Shown: positions 3-8,121, counted from the stretch's first letter. The stretch: 64,000 nucleotides of DNA from Terriglobales bacterium (GCA_035454605.1 DATIGQ010000081.1:6151-70150), one strand, 5' to 3'. Notes: generated by a model from the letters alone, not told the origin. Numbers and translations: made by a program.

Positions 3-3000
3 CTACATCGCGCGACGCGCGGTGACTTCCACTCCCAGCAATGCGGCGGTAGCGGCGAGCGTGTCGGAGGCGTTGGCGGGGTCACGGCCCACGCGCAGGT
101 ACATGGTTTCGCCAGGCGCACACCCGGAAATGGTGGCACCGGTGAGCACCGCGGAGTTCCGCTGGTTAGCGGTGGCGTTATTGGCGTCGGCGACGGTCTG
201 CTCGCTGTTGTACGTGGGGCTGAGCAGATCTTCGCCGTCGGCCAGGCATGCGGTACGGAGCGTCCAAACCACGGAATTGGTCGAGGCAGAACCGGAAAAC
301 CAGATGAACTTCACGTCGACGCCGCCGGTCGAGGTCCAGTCGGCGGGCAAGGTGACGTGGAAGGTGGCGGTGAGGGCGGAGCCATCGGCGAAGTCGAGCG
401 CGCCAAAGCGGTGCGGCGACGTACCGTAGCAGGAGGCCGCGGGGGCACTCGAGGTGGGCAGATCGAAGCTGGGGGCTGCGGTCGAGTTGTTGCAGCCTGC
501 AGCCGAAAGCCAGAACCTGGCAGGATAGCTCACGGTGTTGCCGGCGGCTTCGGCATCAAGCGTCTTGTTGGTGAGCGTGTCGGCGGTGTCGCGTCCCACG
601 ATGGTGTCGCTGGAGGTGAAGGGGACCATGTTGGCGGTGGGGCCGATCCCGGTCTCAACATACAGATTCTTGATCGACGCTGCGGCCGTGCCCATGTCGT
701 ACGTATTGTCTTCGTTCGGGAAGAAGATCCCGGAACCGTCGATATACCAGCGGTTTCCAACACCGATTTCGCCGAAGGCCAGCCTGGCTCCGTCCGCGTC
801 ATTACAGAAGTAGAAGTCGTCCGTGGCAGCGCCAGCCTTCAGGAAGATGCACGCCTGGGCAGACGTTCCGGTGTCGGTGTTTTCCACGGTAAAGGCGGTA
901 TTCGCGTTCTGCGTCTTGGAAAGTGTCTGTGCTTCGGTGAAGGTTTGCGCCAGGTTCAGGATGGCAAGCGTGCCATCTGCATTGGGCGGTGCCAGGGTTC
1001 GGGTGGTGGCGGTAGTGAACCCGGAAATCTGGAAGGCCAGTTTCTTGGTGGAGTCCACGTCATCCGTCACCCGGAAGGTGTTATCGGCGAACTCCGGTCC
1101 GCCACCACCGCCCTGATCGGCCGTGCAGGTGATGACGCCGGCGGAGGAGATGGCGCTGACCTTGTCGGTGCCCGAACAGGTGAGCGGCTGGACGGTAGCC
1201 GAATCGGCGTTGGGGATGGTCACCGTGCGGTTGGCGGTGGGGTCGGTGATGGAGAAAGTGGTCTTGAAGGAATCGAGGGTAGAGCCTTCGAACTCCAGGT
1301 TGCCGCCGAAGTGCACCAGGCCGGTCCCGCTATGAAGCGCGTAGTTGGTCGAGCCTGCGGTCTGATTGTCGATCTTGATGCCGTAGTTGGTGGTCACCGT
1401 GCCCGCAGAACGGGCATTCGACTCAACCCACAGGCCCATCATGTCGCTGACGGTGGTGCCCGCGACCGACATATCCACGTAACTGTTGAGGCCGACCGCC
1501 TTGGAGACGTTCCCGGCCGAGCCCTGAACATAGGTGCTGGCCTGAATCGCCTTCATGATGGTGACCAGACCGGGCGCCTCGTGGATCGCCCTGCCGTCTA
1601 CGCCGATGACATTGCCCTTGGTTCCGGAGGTGTGCACCGCTACCCCGATGCCGGCCAGTCCCATGGTGACGGCGGCGGTGGTGTTGTCCTGGTGCAGTCC
1701 GGTAAAGCCCACCGAGTCGGTGGCTGCGCCATTCAGCACCGCAGCAAAATCGTGCGTGTCGTTCAAGGCCGTCTGTGAGGTGGCTGCGAAGCTCGCGATG
1801 GTGGGCCCTACGCGAGTTCGGCCGGCGCCGAAGTAGTCCCGGGGCCGGTTGGCGACGCTGGCGCCGATGTCGCGGGCATTGTCGGCCGCGAACAGCAGGT
1901 CGGCGGCACCCACGCTCATCGAACCGGAGGAGAATGACAGGGTGGGATCGGTGACTCCGGCGTCGAAGGTCCAGGTGAAACCGGAAGCGTTGCCGAAGGT
2001 GACCGAGCGAATGTCGGTGGTGGTGATCTTGGCCGTGATGTCATCCGGGGCCGGCACCGTGTCGAGCGCGAATTTGACCGGAACATCGTTGCCGGCGATG
2101 GCGCCATCTTTGAAGTTGGCGTCGGTGGCCGGTGCAGCGTTAACGGCGACACTGTCGCCGGAGCCGCCGGCTCCGCCGTCGTCGTCCGAGCAGACGATCT
2201 GATTGGTGGCGTTGATGGTCAGCGCGCCGCCGTTCACGTTCGCGGAGCAGTTGCCCACGACATTCCACTCAGGGACGTAGTTGGCGGTGAGGTTCTGCGC
2301 CTGCTTCAGCGCGAAATAGTTGCTACGGTCGGGGTCGTACCAGCGCAGCTCGCTCCCGACCGCGAGCGAACCCGTCAGAGTGAGATCGGCCTTCAGCCCG
2401 ACTTCCTTCCATTGCGGCGGGTTTACGCCGTCGCCGCGTATCAGGTGAATGACCTGGCCGCTGGCCAGCGTCCGATTCACGCCTCCTTCGAGGGCGATAT
2501 TCGAGTTGTTGGCGATGGTGGTGTTGGAATCCCCTGAATAGATGATGAGTAGCTGGCCTATGGATGACCCCGTGAAATCCGTAATGACGGTGGGGGAAGT
2601 GTTGGCGGTCTTCCAGACACTGAAACCCGCGACCGAGGGCGTGGCCGAGTTCGTGGCCAGTACAGGGACGGCCTCGGTGTTGTCGTTGCGGGAGGGCGGG
2701 ATCATCGTCCCGGAGCCCAGGTCGAAATTCCTCCCGACCGCGACCCTGGTTCCTGCTCCGCTCGCTCCATACGAGATGGGCAACTGCATGGGCTTGACGA
2801 GGAAGTTCCCGATGGTGGTGTTGCCGTCGGTCCAGTTGTCGGTGGCCAGAGAGCCGCCCACCACGATGCCGTAGTCCGAACGGTCGCCTGCTCCTTCGAG
2901 CGAGCGCACCGTGTTGCCGGTGACATAGATCCTCGTCTTGTTGACCAACTCTATGCCCGCCCACGCACCGCTCACCCCAAGCGTCCGGCTGACGCCGTTG

Positions 3001-4475
3001 AATCCGAAACCGTCGATCAGGTTCCCGTGAATGAACACGTCCTGCGTCGAGCTTCCTGCCAGCACGATTCCCTGGCCATAGCAGCGGTAGAGCGAGTTTT
3101 GGATAACCGCAACACGCACCGCGCCCGTGCTCTGACCCAACTGGATGCAGGGATTGCTCTGCGTGGCGGAAATCTGCCCCACGTCGCGGATGGTGTTCCC
3201 GATGACTACGTTCCAACCCGTCTGCGCCGTGTTGTTTTCAAGGGAGATGGCAGAGTTCCTGGTTTCGTCGAAGGTATTGCCCTTGATGAGCGAGTTCATT
3301 CCGGCGAACTCCACGCCCATATTGCCCATCTTGTAGAAGTGGTTATCCGCGATGGTAGCGTTCGATACCCCGCCGGAAAAAGCGTTGATGCCGTCCCAGG
3401 CGCCGTTGATGAACCAGTTGCCCCTGGCTTGGTTATTGCGCGACTGAGGTTCTGTCCCTACGTTGCCGCCAGAGAAGTTGATCCCCGCGCCACCCAGCTT
3501 CTCGAACATTACGCCGACGATGCTGGAGTTCGAGAGGGCGGCAGTCGCTGCATTCGGCCCGAACAGGATGCCGTAAGTCGGACCCTGCGCGTCACATCCG
3601 CTTACTGGCGACCCCTGCGGATTCTCGCCGGCAAATTTGAAGGCGCGCAGATGGACATTCTCGGTACTGGCGGCATCGTTTCCGAGTTTGACGTATGCCA
3701 GCTTGTTGCTGGCGCAGGCCCAAGTGGTGATGTGCAGCACGGTCTTGTCGCCCATCCCTTCGACGGCGACATCGCTGGAGGTGACGGCGAGGGCCGGCGA
3801 GCTACCCGTGACGGCCAGTTCGAACGTGGCCGCCCCGAGCAAGAGGTGGACGGGGCGGTCGATAGTCAGCGTGGAAGAGATGGTCTGCGCGCCTTGGATG
3901 CCGCGCGCGTCGGCTATCCCGCCGGTGGAAGGCAGCGAGTTGATACAGGCCTGGATTTTGGCGCCGGCATCGGTACCGCTGAACACATCGCAGAGACGGA
4001 TGTTGTGAAAGCTGCTGTTGGTAGTGGTGACGTTGGCGATGGCGTTATCCACGTACTGCCGCGAGGCCACCTGCATGGCCACACCCGAGGACACAATGCT
4101 GGCGCGCACCGCGGCGATGGTGGTGGGCGAAGTCGCCGGCACGCTCCAGAGCTCTTGGCTGGTGGAACCGTCGTCGAGTTGGTAGACCACCTTGTAGAAG
4201 CTGCCTGGGGGCGTGGCGCCTTCGTTGGGCACCAGGCTGACGTTGAGCGTGCCGCCGGAGCCGAGCGTGACGCTCTTCGAACCTGCGGCCACGGTTTTTC
4301 CTTCCGCCGTTTCGAAGGCGGGCCAGGTGATGAACAGCGTGCCGCCTGCCGGAGTGCTGTCGGCGCGATAGACCACGTCAACGATGGCGGTGGTCACAGG
4401 GCCCTGGGCCCGTACCGGTGGTGTGAGACCGGCGGCGAGTGCGATGGAGATCAGGCAGTAGAGAATTCGCTTCAT
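3..4475 (-). CDS. Very large (1490 aa) secreted right-handed beta-helix protein with phage tailspike/tail-fibre-like segments
   Basis: Complete ORF (ATG at 4475, TAG at 3-5). Sec-type signal MKRILYCLISIALAAGLTPPVRAQ. Pectate_lyase_3-like entry motif FSGTDAGAKIQACINSLPSTGGIADARG, followed by many NxxIxGN-type beta-helix rungs. Later tail-fibre-like segments: FSITDPTANRTVTIPNADSATV, FRVTDDVDSTKKLAFQISGFTTATTRTLAPPNADGTLA, NTYDMGTAAASIKNLYV. Strong GC3 bias. The CDS call is solid; the function is inferred. Confidence 0.8.
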   Translation of the reverse strand: MKRILYCLISIALAAGLTPPVRAQGPVTTAIVDVVYRADSTPAGGTLFITWPAFETAEGKTVAAGSKSVTLGSGGTLNVSLVPNEGATPPGSFYKVVYQLDDGSTSQELWSVPATSPTTIAAVRASIVSSGVAMQVASRQYVDNAIANVTTTNSSFHNIRLCDVFSGTDAGAKIQACINSLPSTGGIADARGIQGAQTISSTLTIDRPVHLLLGAATFELAVTGSSPALAVTSSDVAVEGMGDKTVLHITTWACASNKLAYVKLGNDAASTENVHLRAFKFAGENPQGSPVSGCDAQGPTYGILFGPNAATAALSNSSIVGVMFEKLGGAGINFSGGNVGTEPQSRNNQARGNWFINGAWDGINAFSGGVSNATIADNHFYKMGNMGVEFAGMNSLIKGNTFDETRNSAISLENNTAQTGWNVVIGNTIRDVGQISATQSNPCIQLGQSTGAVRVAVIQNSLYRCYGQGIVLAGSSTQDVFIHGNLIDGFGFNGVSRTLGVSGAWAGIELVNKTRIYVTGNTVRSLEGAGDRSDYGIVVGGSLATDNWTDGNTTIGNFLVKPMQLPISYGASGAGTRVAVGRNFDLGSGTMIPPSRNDNTEAVPVLATNSATPSVAGFSVWKTANTSPTVITDFTGSSIGQLLIIYSGDSNTTIANNSNIALEGGVNRTLASGQVIHLIRGDGVNPPQWKEVGLKADLTLTGSLAVGSELRWYDPDRSNYFALKQAQNLTANYVPEWNVVGNCSANVNGGALTINATNQIVCSDDDGGAGGSGDSVAVNAAPATDANFKDGAIAGNDVPVKFALDTVPAPDDITAKITTTDIRSVTFGNASGFTWTFDAGVTDPTLSFSSGSMSVGAADLLFAADNARDIGASVANRPRDYFGAGRTRVGPTIASFAATSQTALNDTHDFAAVLNGAATDSVGFTGLHQDNTTAAVTMGLAGIGVAVHTSGTKGNVIGVDGRAIHEAPGLVTIMKAIQASTYVQGSAGNVSKAVGLNSYVDMSVAGTTVSDMMGLWVESNARSAGTVTTNYGIKIDNQTAGSTNYALHSGTGLVHFGGNLEFEGSTLDSFKTTFSITDPTANRTVTIPNADSATVQPLTCSGTDKVSAISSAGVITCTADQGGGGGPEFADNTFRVTDDVDSTKKLAFQISGFTTATTRTLAPPNADGTLAILNLAQTFTEAQTLSKTQNANTAFTVENTDTGTSAQACIFLKAGAATDDFYFCNDADGARLAFGEIGVGNRWYIDGSGIFFPNEDNTYDMGTAAASIKNLYVETGIGPTANMVPFTSSDTIVGRDTADTLTNKTLDAEAAGNTVSYPARFWLSAAGCNNSTAAPSFDLPTSSAPAASCYGTSPHRFGALDFADGSALTATFHVTLPADWTSTGGVDVKFIWFSGSASTNSVVWTLRTACLADGEDLLSPTYNSEQTVADANNATANQRNSAVLTGATISGCAPGETMYLRVGRDPANASDTLAATAALLGVEVTARRAM

Positions 4476-5532: not shown

Positions 5533-5573
5533 AACGGGCGCCCGGCTGGGGCGCCCGTTTTCCCTTTTTCCTA
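5533..5573. terminator. 11-bp GC-rich hairpin with T-tracts on both sides (bidirectional terminator-like)
   Basis: aacgggcgccc-ggctg-gggcgcccgtt, followed on + by ttttccctttttcc. On the minus strand it is followed by ccgcttttATG, the start of the 117-aa ORF. Confidence 0.5.
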
Positions 5574-5629: not shown

Positions 5630-6154
5630 TTATTTGCCCTCCCTTCTTTCGCTTAGCGTGAAAGTGACATTTTTTGGCTCTTGACACGCATCGGATGCCG
5701 GGCGAGGGTGCGGCTCCACATGGCCAGGCAAAGGAGGCATGAGACCGAGGTCGAGCAGCCTACGGCTCAGGCGATCGAGGGCTTTCGGATAGCCGCGGTT
5801 GATGGTGGCACGGTCACAACCGAGCAAAATCGCAGCTTCCTCGCGGGAATACTCTTCCAGCGTGATGCGGGCGATGAGCCTCTGGTCGAAGCGGTCGAGG
5901 CGGCCGAGGCAGCGCTCTACGTCATAGACAAAGATGACGATGTCCTCGAAGGTCGGGACGCGCAGGGTGCTCACGCTGGAACGGAAGAACTCACGGCCCA
6001 GAAGCGCCGGAAGCCGGCCGAGCTCGACGGACATGCGAAGGAAGCGCCGCAGGAGGGCAACGGTTCGTCCACGGTAATGAACAAGGTCGGAATTGGGACA
6101 GCGGACGCGATGCCGCCGGTGGCGGCGAATGCCAGGAACCAAGCGGCGGCTCAT
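5630..6154 (-). CDS. Sigma-70 region-4-like HTH protein (174 aa)
   Basis: C-terminal LIARITLEEYSREEAAILLGCDRATINRGYPKALDRLSRRL resembles a sigma70_r4/ECF HTH. There is no clear canonical region 2. ATG at 6154 is preceded by GGGAGG and overlaps the upstream ORF's stop by 4 nt (ATGA). Confidence 0.65.
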   Translation of the reverse strand: MSRRLVPGIRRHRRHRVRCPNSDLVHYRGRTVALLRRFLRMSVELGRLPALLGREFFRSSVSTLRVPTFEDIVIFVYDVERCLGRLDRFDQRLIARITLEEYSREEAAILLGCDRATINRGYPKALDRLSRRLLDLGLMPPLPGHVEPHPRPASDACQEPKNVTFTLSERREGK

Positions 6155-6330
6155 GCGCACCTCCCGGCACCGGCCAGGCGGCGGCGTTCGGCGGCCAGTT
6201 CCTCCCGGCGCGAGTAACACCGTCGACAGACGGAAAGCTGCTGCCCCTGCGGGCGGAGTCCGAGTGCTCCGCACTGTTCGCAATACTTGGGCTCGAGCAC
6301 CACGCTCTGCCCTGCTTCTGCTTGCGGCAT
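6151..6330 (-). CDS. Small zinc-ribbon protein (59 aa)
   Basis: CxxC...CxxC pattern (YCEQCG ... VCRRCY). ATG at 6330 is preceded by GGAGGA (ttGGAGGAaacgATG). The stop overlaps the next start, indicating translational coupling. Confidence 0.6.
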   Translation of the reverse strand: MPQAEAGQSVVLEPKYCEQCGALGLRPQGQQLSVCRRCYSRREELAAERRRLAGAGRCA

Positions 6331-6420: not shown

Positions 6421-6476
6421 ATTCAGTTGTCAGTGGTCAGCAGCTTCTAGCTTCTAGCTCCTGCCACGACCGCCGA
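6421..6476. repeat. 7-nt periodic array (8 heptads)
   Basis: attcagt tgtcagt ggtcagc agcttct agcttct agctcct gccacga ccgccga, between the DUF2292-like gene and the zinc-ribbon gene. Confidence 0.75.
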
Positions 6477-6481
6477 ATACT

Positions 6482-6703
6482 TCAAGGAATCATGCGGTCG
6501 TCCTTCTTTCGTGAAAAGTAGCCCTCCTCATAGCCGGACTTGAGCACGCGTCCGTTCTGGACCACGACGCTCAGCCGGCCGGTGAAGGCGAGGGCGGCGA
6601 GCAGGCGCTCGGTAGAGGCGGAGAGCATCTCCGAGTCGCGCACCTTGCGGCGGAACTCCAGGAAGACCTGCTCTTGGGGGCCCGATTCGGGTCGGGGGAT
6701 CAT
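6482..6703 (-). CDS. Small protein (73 aa), possibly YezD/DUF2292-like
   Basis: GGAG lies 7 nt upstream of the ATG. Strong GC3 bias. GRLSVVVQNGRVLKSGYEE resembles the DUF2292 'G-x-V-x-hhh-QdGrV' core; this comes from memory, not a search. Confidence 0.6.
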   Translation of the reverse strand: MIPRPESGPQEQVFLEFRRKVRDSEMLSASTERLLAALAFTGRLSVVVQNGRVLKSGYEEGYFSRKKDDRMIP

Positions 6704-6741
6704 GGATTCGCTCCGAACTGTGGGTTATACAATCCGTACGG

Positions 6742-6770
6742 AGCATATCTTGGTGCTTGAAACGTGTCAA
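6742..6770 (-). promoter_or_regulatory. Candidate sigma70 promoter for the minus-strand operon (TTGACA-17-TATGCT)
   Basis: The reverse complement of 6742-6770 reads TTGACAcgtttcaagcaccaagaTATGCT. This leaves a ~30-nt 5'UTR with GGAG before ATG 6703. Confidence 0.6.
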
Positions 6771-6773
6771 GCA
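6754..6773. promoter_or_regulatory. 20-bp near-perfect palindrome (18/20), candidate operator
   Basis: TGCTTGA-a-ACGT-g-TCAAGCA. It covers the -35 and part of the spacer of the minus-strand promoter. Confidence 0.55.
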
Positions 6774-6798
6774 TTTTATTTCCTTTGTGGAACAAGAC

Positions 6799-6827
6799 TT
6801 GCATTGCATATAGCGATTTGATATAAA
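6799..6827 (+). promoter_or_regulatory. Candidate sigma70 promoter for the repressor gene (TTGCAT-17-TATAAA), predicts a leaderless mRNA
   Basis: TTGCATtgcatatagcgatttgaTATAAAcagcccATG. Only 6 nt separate the -10 from the ATG and there is no SD. Confidence 0.6.
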
Positions 6828-6833
6828 CAGCCC

Positions 6834-7550
6834 ATGAAATTCAAGGCGCTGCAGGAGAATCTCCGCAAGGCGCTGTGGAAGCGCATCGAGGCCGGCGAAC
6901 TGACGGGGCTGAAGCTGGCCAAGCAGACCGGCTTCCAGCAAGCGCACATTTCCAATTTTTTGAACCGCAAGCGGTCGCTGAGCCTGGACGGCATGGATCG
7001 CGTGCTGGTGGCGCAGCACATGTCGGTGCTGGACCTGCTGGACCCGGACGAGATCAACAAGCGGGCTTCGATCGTGCCCCCCAGCGAGGACGAGTTCGAC
7101 AACGTTCTGCTGGTGGAGGGCACGGTGGCCGCGGGCGAGCCGCTGATCACGCAGGAGAACGTGAAAGAGATCCTGAAGTTCAAGAAGAACTTTCTGCGCA
7201 GGCTGCGGGCAGAGATGGAGTCGGCGCGCGACGACTGGCACCGCTTTGTGCTGGTAAAAGTGGACGCGCGTGAGGGCATGAGCATGTACCCGCGGCTGCT
7301 GCCGGACGCGATGGTGCTGATTGACCGCCACTACAACTCGCTGAAGCCCTACCGCAAGAATGAGCGCAACATGTACGCGGTGCGCAAGGACGACGGATGC
7401 ACCATCAAGTATGTCGAGGAGGCCGAGGGCCACTTGGTGCTCCGCCCGGAGAACCCCGCCTACCCGGTGGATGTGCTGGCCATCGAAGAGGGCAAGACCC
7501 AAGCCGACTACGTGGTGGGCCGCGTGTGCCACGTATCGATCGAGACCTGA
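6834..7550 (+). CDS. CI/LexA-like self-cleaving repressor (XRE-type HTH + S24 peptidase domain)
   Basis: 238 aa. N-terminal HTH (LKLAKQTGFQQAHISNFLNRKRSLS). LexA-type cleavage motif VAAGEP, Ser motif GMSMYP, and a downstream Lys (CTIKYV). Confidence 0.85.
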   Translation: MKFKALQENLRKALWKRIEAGELTGLKLAKQTGFQQAHISNFLNRKRSLSLDGMDRVLVAQHMSVLDLLDPDEINKRASIVPPSEDEFDNVLLVEGTVAAGEPLITQENVKEILKFKKNFLRRLRAEMESARDDWHRFVLVKVDAREGMSMYPRLLPDAMVLIDRHYNSLKPYRKNERNMYAVRKDDGCTIKYVEEAEGHLVLRPENPAYPVDVLAIEEGKTQADYVVGRVCHVSIET

Positions 7551-7638: not shown

Positions 7639-7983
7639 TCAGTGCTTTTTCTTTCTTTTCTTCTTCTTGTCTTTCTTCTTCTTATCTTTTTTCTTTTTGC
7701 CCTTCTTTTTCTTGTCCTTTTTCTTCTTGGCAGCGGCTTTCTTCTTGGCGGCTTTCTTCTTGGCCGCCTTCTTTTTGGCCGGAGCTCTCTTCGGCGGAGC
7801 AGCAGGCGTGGCGGGCACGGATACCACCGTGGCGCCCGAGATCTCGCCCTCGTCGCTCAACTCATCCATCTCTTCCTCTTCTTCCTCTTCGTACTGCTCA
7901 TCGAGGTTGCCGTAGTCGGGCTCACCGAAGTCGTCCATTTCGTCGTTGTCACTGGCGTAGAGGGTCTCGTCGTCGAAGTTCAT
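7639..7983 (-). CDS. Bipolar low-complexity protein with an acidic N-half and a poly-Lys/Ala (histone H1-like) C-half
   Basis: 114 aa: MNFDDETLYASDNDEMDDF...EEEEEEEMDELSDEGE then KKKAAKKKAAKKKAAAKKKKDKKKKGKKKK.... Strong SD (cGGAGGAGacATG). Confidence 0.7.
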   Translation of the reverse strand: MNFDDETLYASDNDEMDDFGEPDYGNLDEQYEEEEEEEMDELSDEGEISGATVVSVPATPAAPPKRAPAKKKAAKKKAAKKKAAAKKKKDKKKKGKKKKDKKKKDKKKKRKKKH

Positions 7984-8121
7984 GTCTCCTCCGAAATGTG
8001 GCCCAACTCGAGCGGACCGGAAGCCATTTGCCGGGCGCGCCGTTTGGAGATCACTCCGAGGTTGGATGCGTCCCGGAGCAGGCGCGGATTATAGCAACAG
8101 AAGGAGGGCTGTCAACCCGGG

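Follow-up and report, generated by a model that had tools for sequence, protein, structure and literature searches.

The 130-nt region between a repressor gene and the divergently transcribed gene orf73 of a Terriglobales bacterium carries two back-to-back promoters, P_rep for the repressor and P_div for orf73, and the mRNA from P_rep is predicted to be leaderless. We consider this promoter and leaderless architecture highly probable. The data also lean, by a smaller measure, towards a fuller model of a Terriglobales chromosomal module in which P_rep and P_div, back to back, would serve a leaderless, autoregulated cI/LexA-type repressor that gates a three-gene operon. The analysis covered a stretch of 64,000 nt (the window), and locus counts of 83 refer to the window plus the loci of 82 relatives; gene neighborhoods were compared in 80 fetched genome loci. 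Among the closest relatives, L081, L082 and L083 have 98%, 93% and 82% protein identity to the window. A literature search found no published work on this Acidobacteria module or its promoters.

The intergenic region is an A+T-rich island, with 39-43% G+C versus about 65% in the surrounding DNA. Conservation was measured as bits per column in a footprint of the 15 closest loci. In this footprint, peaks were found at both -35 boxes, both -10 regions, the arms of a dyad in P_rep and a T-rich block, with valleys between them. Two other candidates for shared motifs, TGTGGAA and GATGTT, were rejected because they are kept in some subgroups only; the TGTGGAA of the window is not retained in L081 or L082. 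Short repeats are also present in non-coding DNA of these loci: AGCTTCT is repeated 2.6 times in tandem at window 6437-6460, between orf73 and the next gene of its strand, and runs of the GCTGATA/GCTGAGA or CAGCACT type occur elsewhere, as in the upstream regions of L054, L066 and L008.

The repressor gene (6834-7550, plus strand) encodes 238 aa, and a cI/LexA architecture of the protein is supported: an XRE-type helix-turn-helix (about residues 14-65) is followed by a linker with the LexA-like cleavage-site motif VAAGEPL (residues 98-104) and by a Peptidase_S24 domain with Ser150 (GMSM) and Lys192 (TIKYV). The peptidase domain matched Pfam PF00717 with E=1.1e-10 (41.6 bits, cut-off 23.3), and residues 5-234 matched phrog_4, 'transcriptional repressor', with E=9.5e-16. 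Matches to the N-terminal domain were weaker. HTH_26 scored E=0.0048, below the Pfam cut-off, PADLOC 'Control_protein' matched the helix-turn-helix at 5e-5, and HipB chains, at E=0.002 with the repressor family profile, were the closest helix-turn-helix relative. An AlphaFold model of moderate confidence (pLDDT 72) retrieved lambda cI (3bdn) as the best fold match (E=7.5e-6), followed by LexA, and the C-terminal domain matched the C-terminal domains of LexA and cI. The protein is not a canonical LexA: it has no LexA winged-helix domain and no full-length match to TIGR00498, which scored 25 bits against a cut-off of 110.95 and covered residues 83-219 only. VAAGEPL, the GMSM serine and the lysine align with Ala84-Gly85, Ser119 and Lys156 of E. 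coli LexA, in which the VAAGEPL motif is identical. An extra helix of roughly 22 residues (KEILKFKKNFLRRLRAEMESARDD; window 7146-7226, residues about 105-131) separates the LexA-like cleavage-site strand from the catalytic core; LexA is without it in the alignment.

The database contained 5647 homologues of the repressor. The best 120 of these 5647 were 72-98% identical to it and nearly all 238 aa long, and their source names, where given, were Terriglobales or Acidobacteria. Aligned homologues begin with MKF(K/R). S150 and K192 were invariant in 12 of 12 aligned orthologues, as was the recognition helix QAHISNFLN in all 12 aligned family members. In 4 of the 12 orthologues, T, K or N takes the place of the glycine of the Ala-Gly cleavage site; the window has VAA-GEPL.

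P_rep had been described as TTGCAT-17-TATAAA, and we found it at exactly this place on the plus strand, with the -35 box at 6799-6804 and, 17 nt further, the -10 box at 6822-6827, followed by 6 nt (CAGCCC) and the repressor ATG at 6834. Two details had been overlooked. A TG at 6819-6820 makes this an extended -10, and TATAAA is without the usual last T, which is why our promoter scan did not list P_rep. As this T is normally critical, its absence counts against the promoter model. The -35 box had 1.53 bits per column among the 15 closest loci, and the group A alignment has a conserved ACTTGCA here. The -10 hexamer occupies -12 to -7 relative to the ATG, and an in-frame TGA five codons upstream makes 6834 the first possible start. 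The stated lack of a Shine-Dalgarno sequence was also correct: GGAG, GAGG and AGGA are all absent upstream of the repressor ATG, whereas the neighboring genes do have one, GGAG before orf73, GGAGGA before the zinc-ribbon gene that follows it and GGAGGAG before kk114, a gene on the other side of the repressor gene.

These features are kept among relatives. The distance from the end of a -10-like hexamer to the ATG was 6-8 nt in 72 of the 83 loci and 4-10 nt in 81; as a control, such a hexamer was present at the same distance in 2% of positions inside the gene. The TG of the extended -10 was found in 69 of 83 loci, a Shine-Dalgarno-like tetramer in only one, and every complete start codon, that of the window and those of 82 loci, was ATG. 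TATACT was the commonest hexamer. Tandem -10 boxes were present in many loci (groups B-D), the proximal one, TGCTATACT, being 6-7 nt from the ATG; what is kept at P_rep is the spacing from -10 to ATG. A TANNNT-like -10 whose first T lies about 12 nt upstream of the start is an in-silico signature of leaderless genes (PMC3160421). By the position of its -10, the lack of a Shine-Dalgarno sequence and its ATG start, the repressor gene fits the leaderless (TA-led) class. The leaderless mRNA that the preliminary description had predicted is thus supported by the -10 placement, the absence of a Shine-Dalgarno sequence and the ATG kept across the 83 loci, and we infer that transcription from P_rep starts at the A of the ATG (6834) or 1-2 nt from that A.

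P_div, TTGACA-17-TATGCT on the minus strand, was likewise at the place described and was also listed by the consensus scan, with 10 of 12 matches. Its -35 box (6765-6770; TGTCAA on the plus strand) was almost invariant among relatives, with 1.94 bits per column and 99% identity to the window, and GTCAAG, which represents this box on the plus strand, occurred in 59 of 81 upstream regions versus 7.9 expected. The TATA core of the -10 box (6742-6747) is kept at the same position in relatives. Transcription is predicted to start at about 6735, which would give a 32-nt leader, and GGAG at 6711-6714 lies 7 nt before the orf73 ATG. The two promoters do not overlap, their predicted starts being about 99 bp apart. 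Both were far above chance when relatives were compared, and conservation across the 83 loci supports the earlier proposal that they are back-to-back promoters of the sigma-70 type. Directly upstream of the P_div -35 box is the T-rich block TTTTATTTCCTTT (6774-6786; AAAGGAAATAAAA on the minus strand), with 1.37 bits per column, and TTTCC-type 6-mers are enriched upstream of the repressor gene. The block is a candidate for an UP-element-like sequence or for the site of some factor.

In several relatives, a mobile element of 2.9-3.6 kb has entered precisely at the P_div -35 box, its target corresponding to window 6766-6773. Copies are present in L011 (289-3929), L021 (507-3919), L053 (1054-3919) and L072 (704-3919), and partial copies in L013, L020, L025, L045, L057 and L067. 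The element has terminal inverted repeats of roughly 20 bp (GATGAYTATGCAYTTGACAC) and lies between 8-bp target duplications whose sequence is that of the respective host (GTCAAGAA, GTCAAGCG, GTCAAGAT); the L072 copy appears, judged from its sequence, to carry an IS1595-type transposase. It parts the repressor gene from orf73, with GTCAAG remaining on both sides. From the sequence of these insertions, the P_div -35 box looks like a site-specific insertion hot spot.

The genes downstream of P_div probably form an operon. The first, orf73 (6482-6703, minus strand), encodes a small protein of 73 aa with weak similarity to DUF2292 (YezD-like); 10 of 14 orf73 members matched PF10055, the best with E=0.0012, below threshold. 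The second (6151-6330, minus strand) encodes a four-cysteine zinc-ribbon protein of about 59 aa, counted from the ATG after GGAGGA, whose CxxC...CxxC motif is conserved in 57 loci. The third (5630-6154, minus strand) encodes a sigma4-like protein of 174 aa, roughly 150-175 aa across loci, that consists of one long N-terminal helix and a sigma-70 region-4-like domain. Its match to PF08281 (E=0.005) was below threshold; in an AF2 model (pLDDT 78), the C-terminal domain matched ECF sigma region 4 chains with TM 0.8-0.9 (target) and E about 0.02. Sigma region 2 is absent. A true sigma factor is unlikely; the protein might regulate by binding DNA, or mimic a sigma or anti-sigma factor. The zinc-ribbon stop codon overlaps the start of the sigma4-like gene (ATGA), suggesting translational coupling of the two genes. 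About 70 nt after the sigma4-like gene is a terminator-like hairpin with a T run (5533-5559, minus strand; 11 pairs, 9 of them G-C), which is probably the end of the divergent operon. The overlap, together with this hairpin after the third gene, suggests that the divergent unit is probably a three-gene operon. Minus-strand genes of these three kinds lie opposite or near the repressor gene in 66 of the 80 loci, and orf73 itself is beside or near it in 66 of 80, with 50-98% identity.

Two other minus-strand genes of the window were seen during this analysis. kk114 (window 7639-7983) encodes a 114-aa protein whose N-terminal half is strongly acidic and whose tail is rich in lysine (KKKAAKKK... 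repeats). Its promoter (8088-8115) matches the consensus at 12 of 12 positions, TTGACA-16-TGCTATAAT with an extended -10, and is followed by a leader of roughly 95 nt with GGAGGAG. Related genes were found by tblastn in 2 of 80 loci, and L040 has a similar acidic/lysine-rich gene. The other gene (window 3-4475) encodes a 1490-aa protein with a signal-peptide-like N-terminus, for which there was no Pfam or PHROG match at E<=0.01.

Where, then, might the repressor bind? The preliminary description had proposed the 20-bp palindrome TGCTTGAaACGTgTCAAGCA (6754-6773; TGCTTGA-aACGTg-TCAAGCA). Its position and its overlap with the P_div -35 box were correct, and a repeat search gave 10-nt arms with 90% identity; the operator role was not supported, since the palindrome is not conserved. 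In a lineage-specific form of this proposal, the repressor would bind TGCTTGA-N6-TCAAGCA and so block the -35 box and spacer of P_div, the site being specific to the lineage of the window. The perfect 7-bp arms over the -35 box speak for it, and so does uniqueness, as the window contains no further copy of the palindrome (nor of CAAGaCTTG, discussed below). An equal inverted repeat (arms >=7 bp, loop <=10), however, was present in dinucleotide shuffles of the 130-nt region with p=0.073. The right arm consists of the conserved -35 box plus GCA and is conserved only because it is that hexamer, and the left arm lies in the unconstrained promoter spacer, where conservation in the 15 closest loci was close to its lowest (0.39 bits per column at 6750-6764). 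Of the 61 loci that have the -35 box, 2 showed an inverted repeat over it whose arms reached 6 bp or more, versus 0.98 expected from shuffled left flanks. Some GCTTG...CAAGC symmetry is present in all three closest genomes, which again favors the model, but the loop between these half-sites is 8 nt in the window, 9 nt in L081 (GCTTG-N9-CAAGC) and 1 nt in L082 (TGCTTG-T-CAAGCA), although the L081 and L082 proteins are 98% and 93% identical to that of the window; L083 has no such symmetry. Loops of 8, 9 and 1 nt are not those of a fixed dimer operator. Moreover, the helix that reads DNA is invariant in the 12 aligned members, so that the operator should be conserved too. We thus rejected the palindrome as a conserved operator on its chance probability, its unconserved left arm and its drifting spacing, and regard the lineage-specific form of the model as improbable. 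On the sequences compared, the palindrome is probably an incidental, lineage-specific symmetry on a conserved -35 box.

The palindrome might instead act in RNA, as a plus-strand hairpin or intrinsic terminator with its stem at 6752-6775 followed by TTTTATTTCC. It was on the list of the terminator scan, and the RNA folds with -9.8 kcal/mol (z = -2.15; 7 of 200 shuffles folded equally well). Yet there is no upstream plus-strand gene to end, the strand being antisense to orf73, the stem has 3 G-C pairs only, the relatives are without the hairpin, the block to which the T run belongs is conserved where no hairpin exists, and there was no Rfam match. We consider a hairpin function very improbable. 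The small palindrome CAAGaCTTG was present at 6793-6801, as had been noted; a regulatory meaning did not follow, since a 4+1+4 palindrome occurs in nearly every shuffle. It was also rejected as an element because it is not kept in L081-L083.

Better candidates for operators were found among the conserved sequences. The most enriched 6-mer upstream of the repressor gene was GCTATA/TATAGC, present in 70 of 81 regions versus 8 expected. In the window it belongs to the conserved dyad TATAGCGATTTGATATA (TATAGC-GATTT-GATATA, 6809-6825), which spans -25 to -9 of P_rep and includes 4 nt of the -10 box besides the spacer and the TG. The family consensus is WATAGC-N5-GCTATA, and with at most 2 mismatches it was found in 74 of 83 loci versus 0.12 expected. 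In the 15 closest loci the arms had 1.70 and 1.46 bits and the spacer 0.66; across loci, the flanks and the spacer are unconserved. We infer from this pattern that the dyad is the best candidate for an autoregulatory operator. A second inverted repeat, GTTATA-N14-CATATC (6724-6749), extends from the P_div -10 box to about +12. Sequences within 2 mismatches of its consensus, aGYTATA-N14-TATAGCt, were found in 44 of 70 loci versus 0.2 expected; the window copy is weaker, with 3 mismatches. Where the mobile element splits the region, this repeat stays with orf73. It is a candidate for a second operator or for an element linked to the promoter. The opposite orientation of the half-sites and the N5 versus N14 spacing indicate that one rigid dimer could not bind both repeats alike. 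Within 2 mismatches of the P_rep dyad, the 64-kb window has no site but 6809-6825, and no further copy of either dyad was found there, so the regulon looks local. Matches to the dyad 2.7-3.7 kb downstream in some loci were rejected, as they are coding sequence and the TGCTATAAT -10 of a kk114-like gene. In L024, L059, L063, L068 and L074, where the intergenic region is 250-275 bp, a module composed of the T-rich block, AGATGTT, about 15 nt and AATAGC-N5-GCTAT is duplicated upstream, at about -150 from the repressor ATG, and the duplication brings in a second, near-perfect palindrome, AATAGCA-N3-TGCTATT.

The GCTATA-type repeats could also be mere parts of promoters (TGCTATAAT-type -10 boxes, tandem or antisense), with the repressor binding elsewhere or another protein binding the dyad. 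The right arms of the dyads do coincide with -10 hexamers, and the -10 of the unrelated kk114 promoter is also TGCTATAAT (8088-8096), so that a part of the dyad conservation is ordinary promoter conservation. Against this explanation, conservation of the left arm, WATAGC, equals that of the -10 although the arm lies in the promoter spacer, and no sequence-specific contact of RNA polymerase is known at -25 to -20, where this arm is located. Dimer sites typically combine conserved arms with an unconserved spacer, and group D loci have an extra near-perfect palindrome, AATAGCA-N3-TGCTATT, about 150 nt upstream.

A sister clade of the repressor bears on the same question. It comprises 80 metagenome or viral-contig loci (L084-L164), and its repressor is 44% identical in one comparison (L084), with the same recognition helix (FQQAHISNFLN). 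The clade lacks the TATAGC dyad. At P_rep it has TTCGYC repeats and a GCGAA-N3-TTCGC dyad, and around the P_div -10 box GTCTAAA-N9-TTTAGAC. An identical recognition helix without the TATAGC dyad favors the promoter-parts explanation, as does the TTTCCT block, which is at a similar position in the sister clade and, together with the -35 box, is common to both clades and a possible alternative site for the repressor. The same helix beside different repeats lowers our confidence in the operators. Assigning the two dyads as operators is accordingly a tentative step that we rate at a little less than an even chance, and the repeats being promoter parts only is rather unlikely. The sister clade differs in two other respects. 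Ala replaces the catalytic Ser in 78 of 80 members, and Arg the Lys in 79 of 80, indicating a pseudo-peptidase. With about 20-25 nt between the -10 and the ATG, the mRNAs of these repressor genes probably do have a leader. L084 keeps the zinc-ribbon and sigma4-like genes opposite the repressor gene.

The geometry of the region had been taken for a bistable switch of the lysogeny type. A prophage or defence-island context was considered and rejected: among PHROGs only the repressor had a clear match, its neighbors matching nothing or, weakly and no better than E=2.6e-4, families of regulators or of unknown function, and PADLOC reported only a 'control protein', on the helix-turn-helix. A search of 2.9 million viral contigs yielded one distant relative. 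Further along from the sigma4-like gene is a dual-specificity phosphatase gene, and synteny with this DSP phosphatase, an MltD-like transglycosylase and a TonB receptor is kept in MAGs of many species. The locus is chromosomal, syntenic across Terriglobales, and not a prophage. Nor was a Cro-like DNA binder found, orf73 having no helix-turn-helix match and weak DUF2292 similarity instead. With a syntenic chromosomal locus, no prophage and no Cro-like partner, the lysogeny-type bistable switch is unsupported.

Resemblance to the lambda immunity region is nevertheless considerable. The repressor combines an N-terminal helix-turn-helix with a C-terminal S24 domain of the self-cleaving type, 3bdn being its best structural match; the promoters are back to back with starts about 100 bp apart; the 17-bp dyad overlaps the repressor's own promoter; and the predicted leaderless mRNA has its counterpart in that of lambda cI, which is leaderless when transcribed from pRM (PMC10491246). 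Unlike lambda, the module is a vertically inherited chromosomal locus with neither a prophage nor a Cro-like gene, there is no sign of positive autoregulation or bistability, and the candidate operators lie at the outer side of each promoter (-10 and downstream) rather than in a shared tripartite operator between them.

With LexA and the SOS system the repressor shares the VAAGEPL, GMSM (Ser) and Lys motifs, a chromosomal gene and, probably, autoregulation. It differs in its XRE/HipB-like N-terminal domain, which is not a winged helix, in the helix of roughly 22 residues inserted before the catalytic core, in a cleavage-site Gly that is not conserved and in a regulon that looks local. HipB and the C proteins of restriction-modification systems are the closest helix-turn-helix relatives by sequence, the recognition helix being KQATISNFEN in HipB and QQAHISNFLN here. 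The HipB operator is TATCC-N8-GGATA (PMC3376134), an 18-bp dyad with outer TAT/ATA, similar to the 17-bp TATAGC-N5-GCTATA. HipB and the C proteins, however, are small, single-domain proteins without S24, and no toxin or restriction-modification partner is found here.

Taken together, these data suggest the following scheme. P_rep (TTGCAT-17-TGaTATAAA) would start at the repressor ATG and lead to leaderless translation of the 238-aa repressor, and P_div (TTGACA-17-TATGCT, with the A/T-rich block upstream) would produce the leadered three-gene operon with its Shine-Dalgarno sequence. A repressor dimer on the dyad TATAGC-N5-GMTATA, covering the spacer and extended -10, would shut off P_rep, and P_div would probably be shut off as well, by repressor on the related inverted repeat that covers its -10 and start. 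P_rep and P_div would be repressed independently, since each candidate site lies at the outer side of its promoter. S24 self-cleavage at the LexA-like VAA|GEPL, in response to some presumed inducing signal, would lift repression.

It is conceivable, though on present data rather doubtful, that the module is an uncharacterised stress circuit of Terriglobales, in which a non-LexA, self-cleaving, cI-like master repressor with a leaderless mRNA gates a small operon and the sister lineage has a non-cleaving pseudo-peptidase with rewired operators. If so, the operon of DUF2292-like, zinc-ribbon and sigma-region-4-only proteins could reprogramme transcription after DNA damage or another signal. The regulatory logic, an autoregulated cI/LexA-like repressor with a leaderless mRNA, is that of textbooks, and the value of the locus is as an entry point, not as a new principle. 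The catalytically intact and dead clades are a natural experiment on S24 repressors losing their cleavage switch, and within the phylum the locus offers a clean, testable case of a leaderless gene that is conserved and has an extended -10 promoter. The Acidobacteria rank among the most abundant bacteria of soil, and the locus points to a widespread, uncharacterised operon under repressor control, in a module that is kept throughout Terriglobales.
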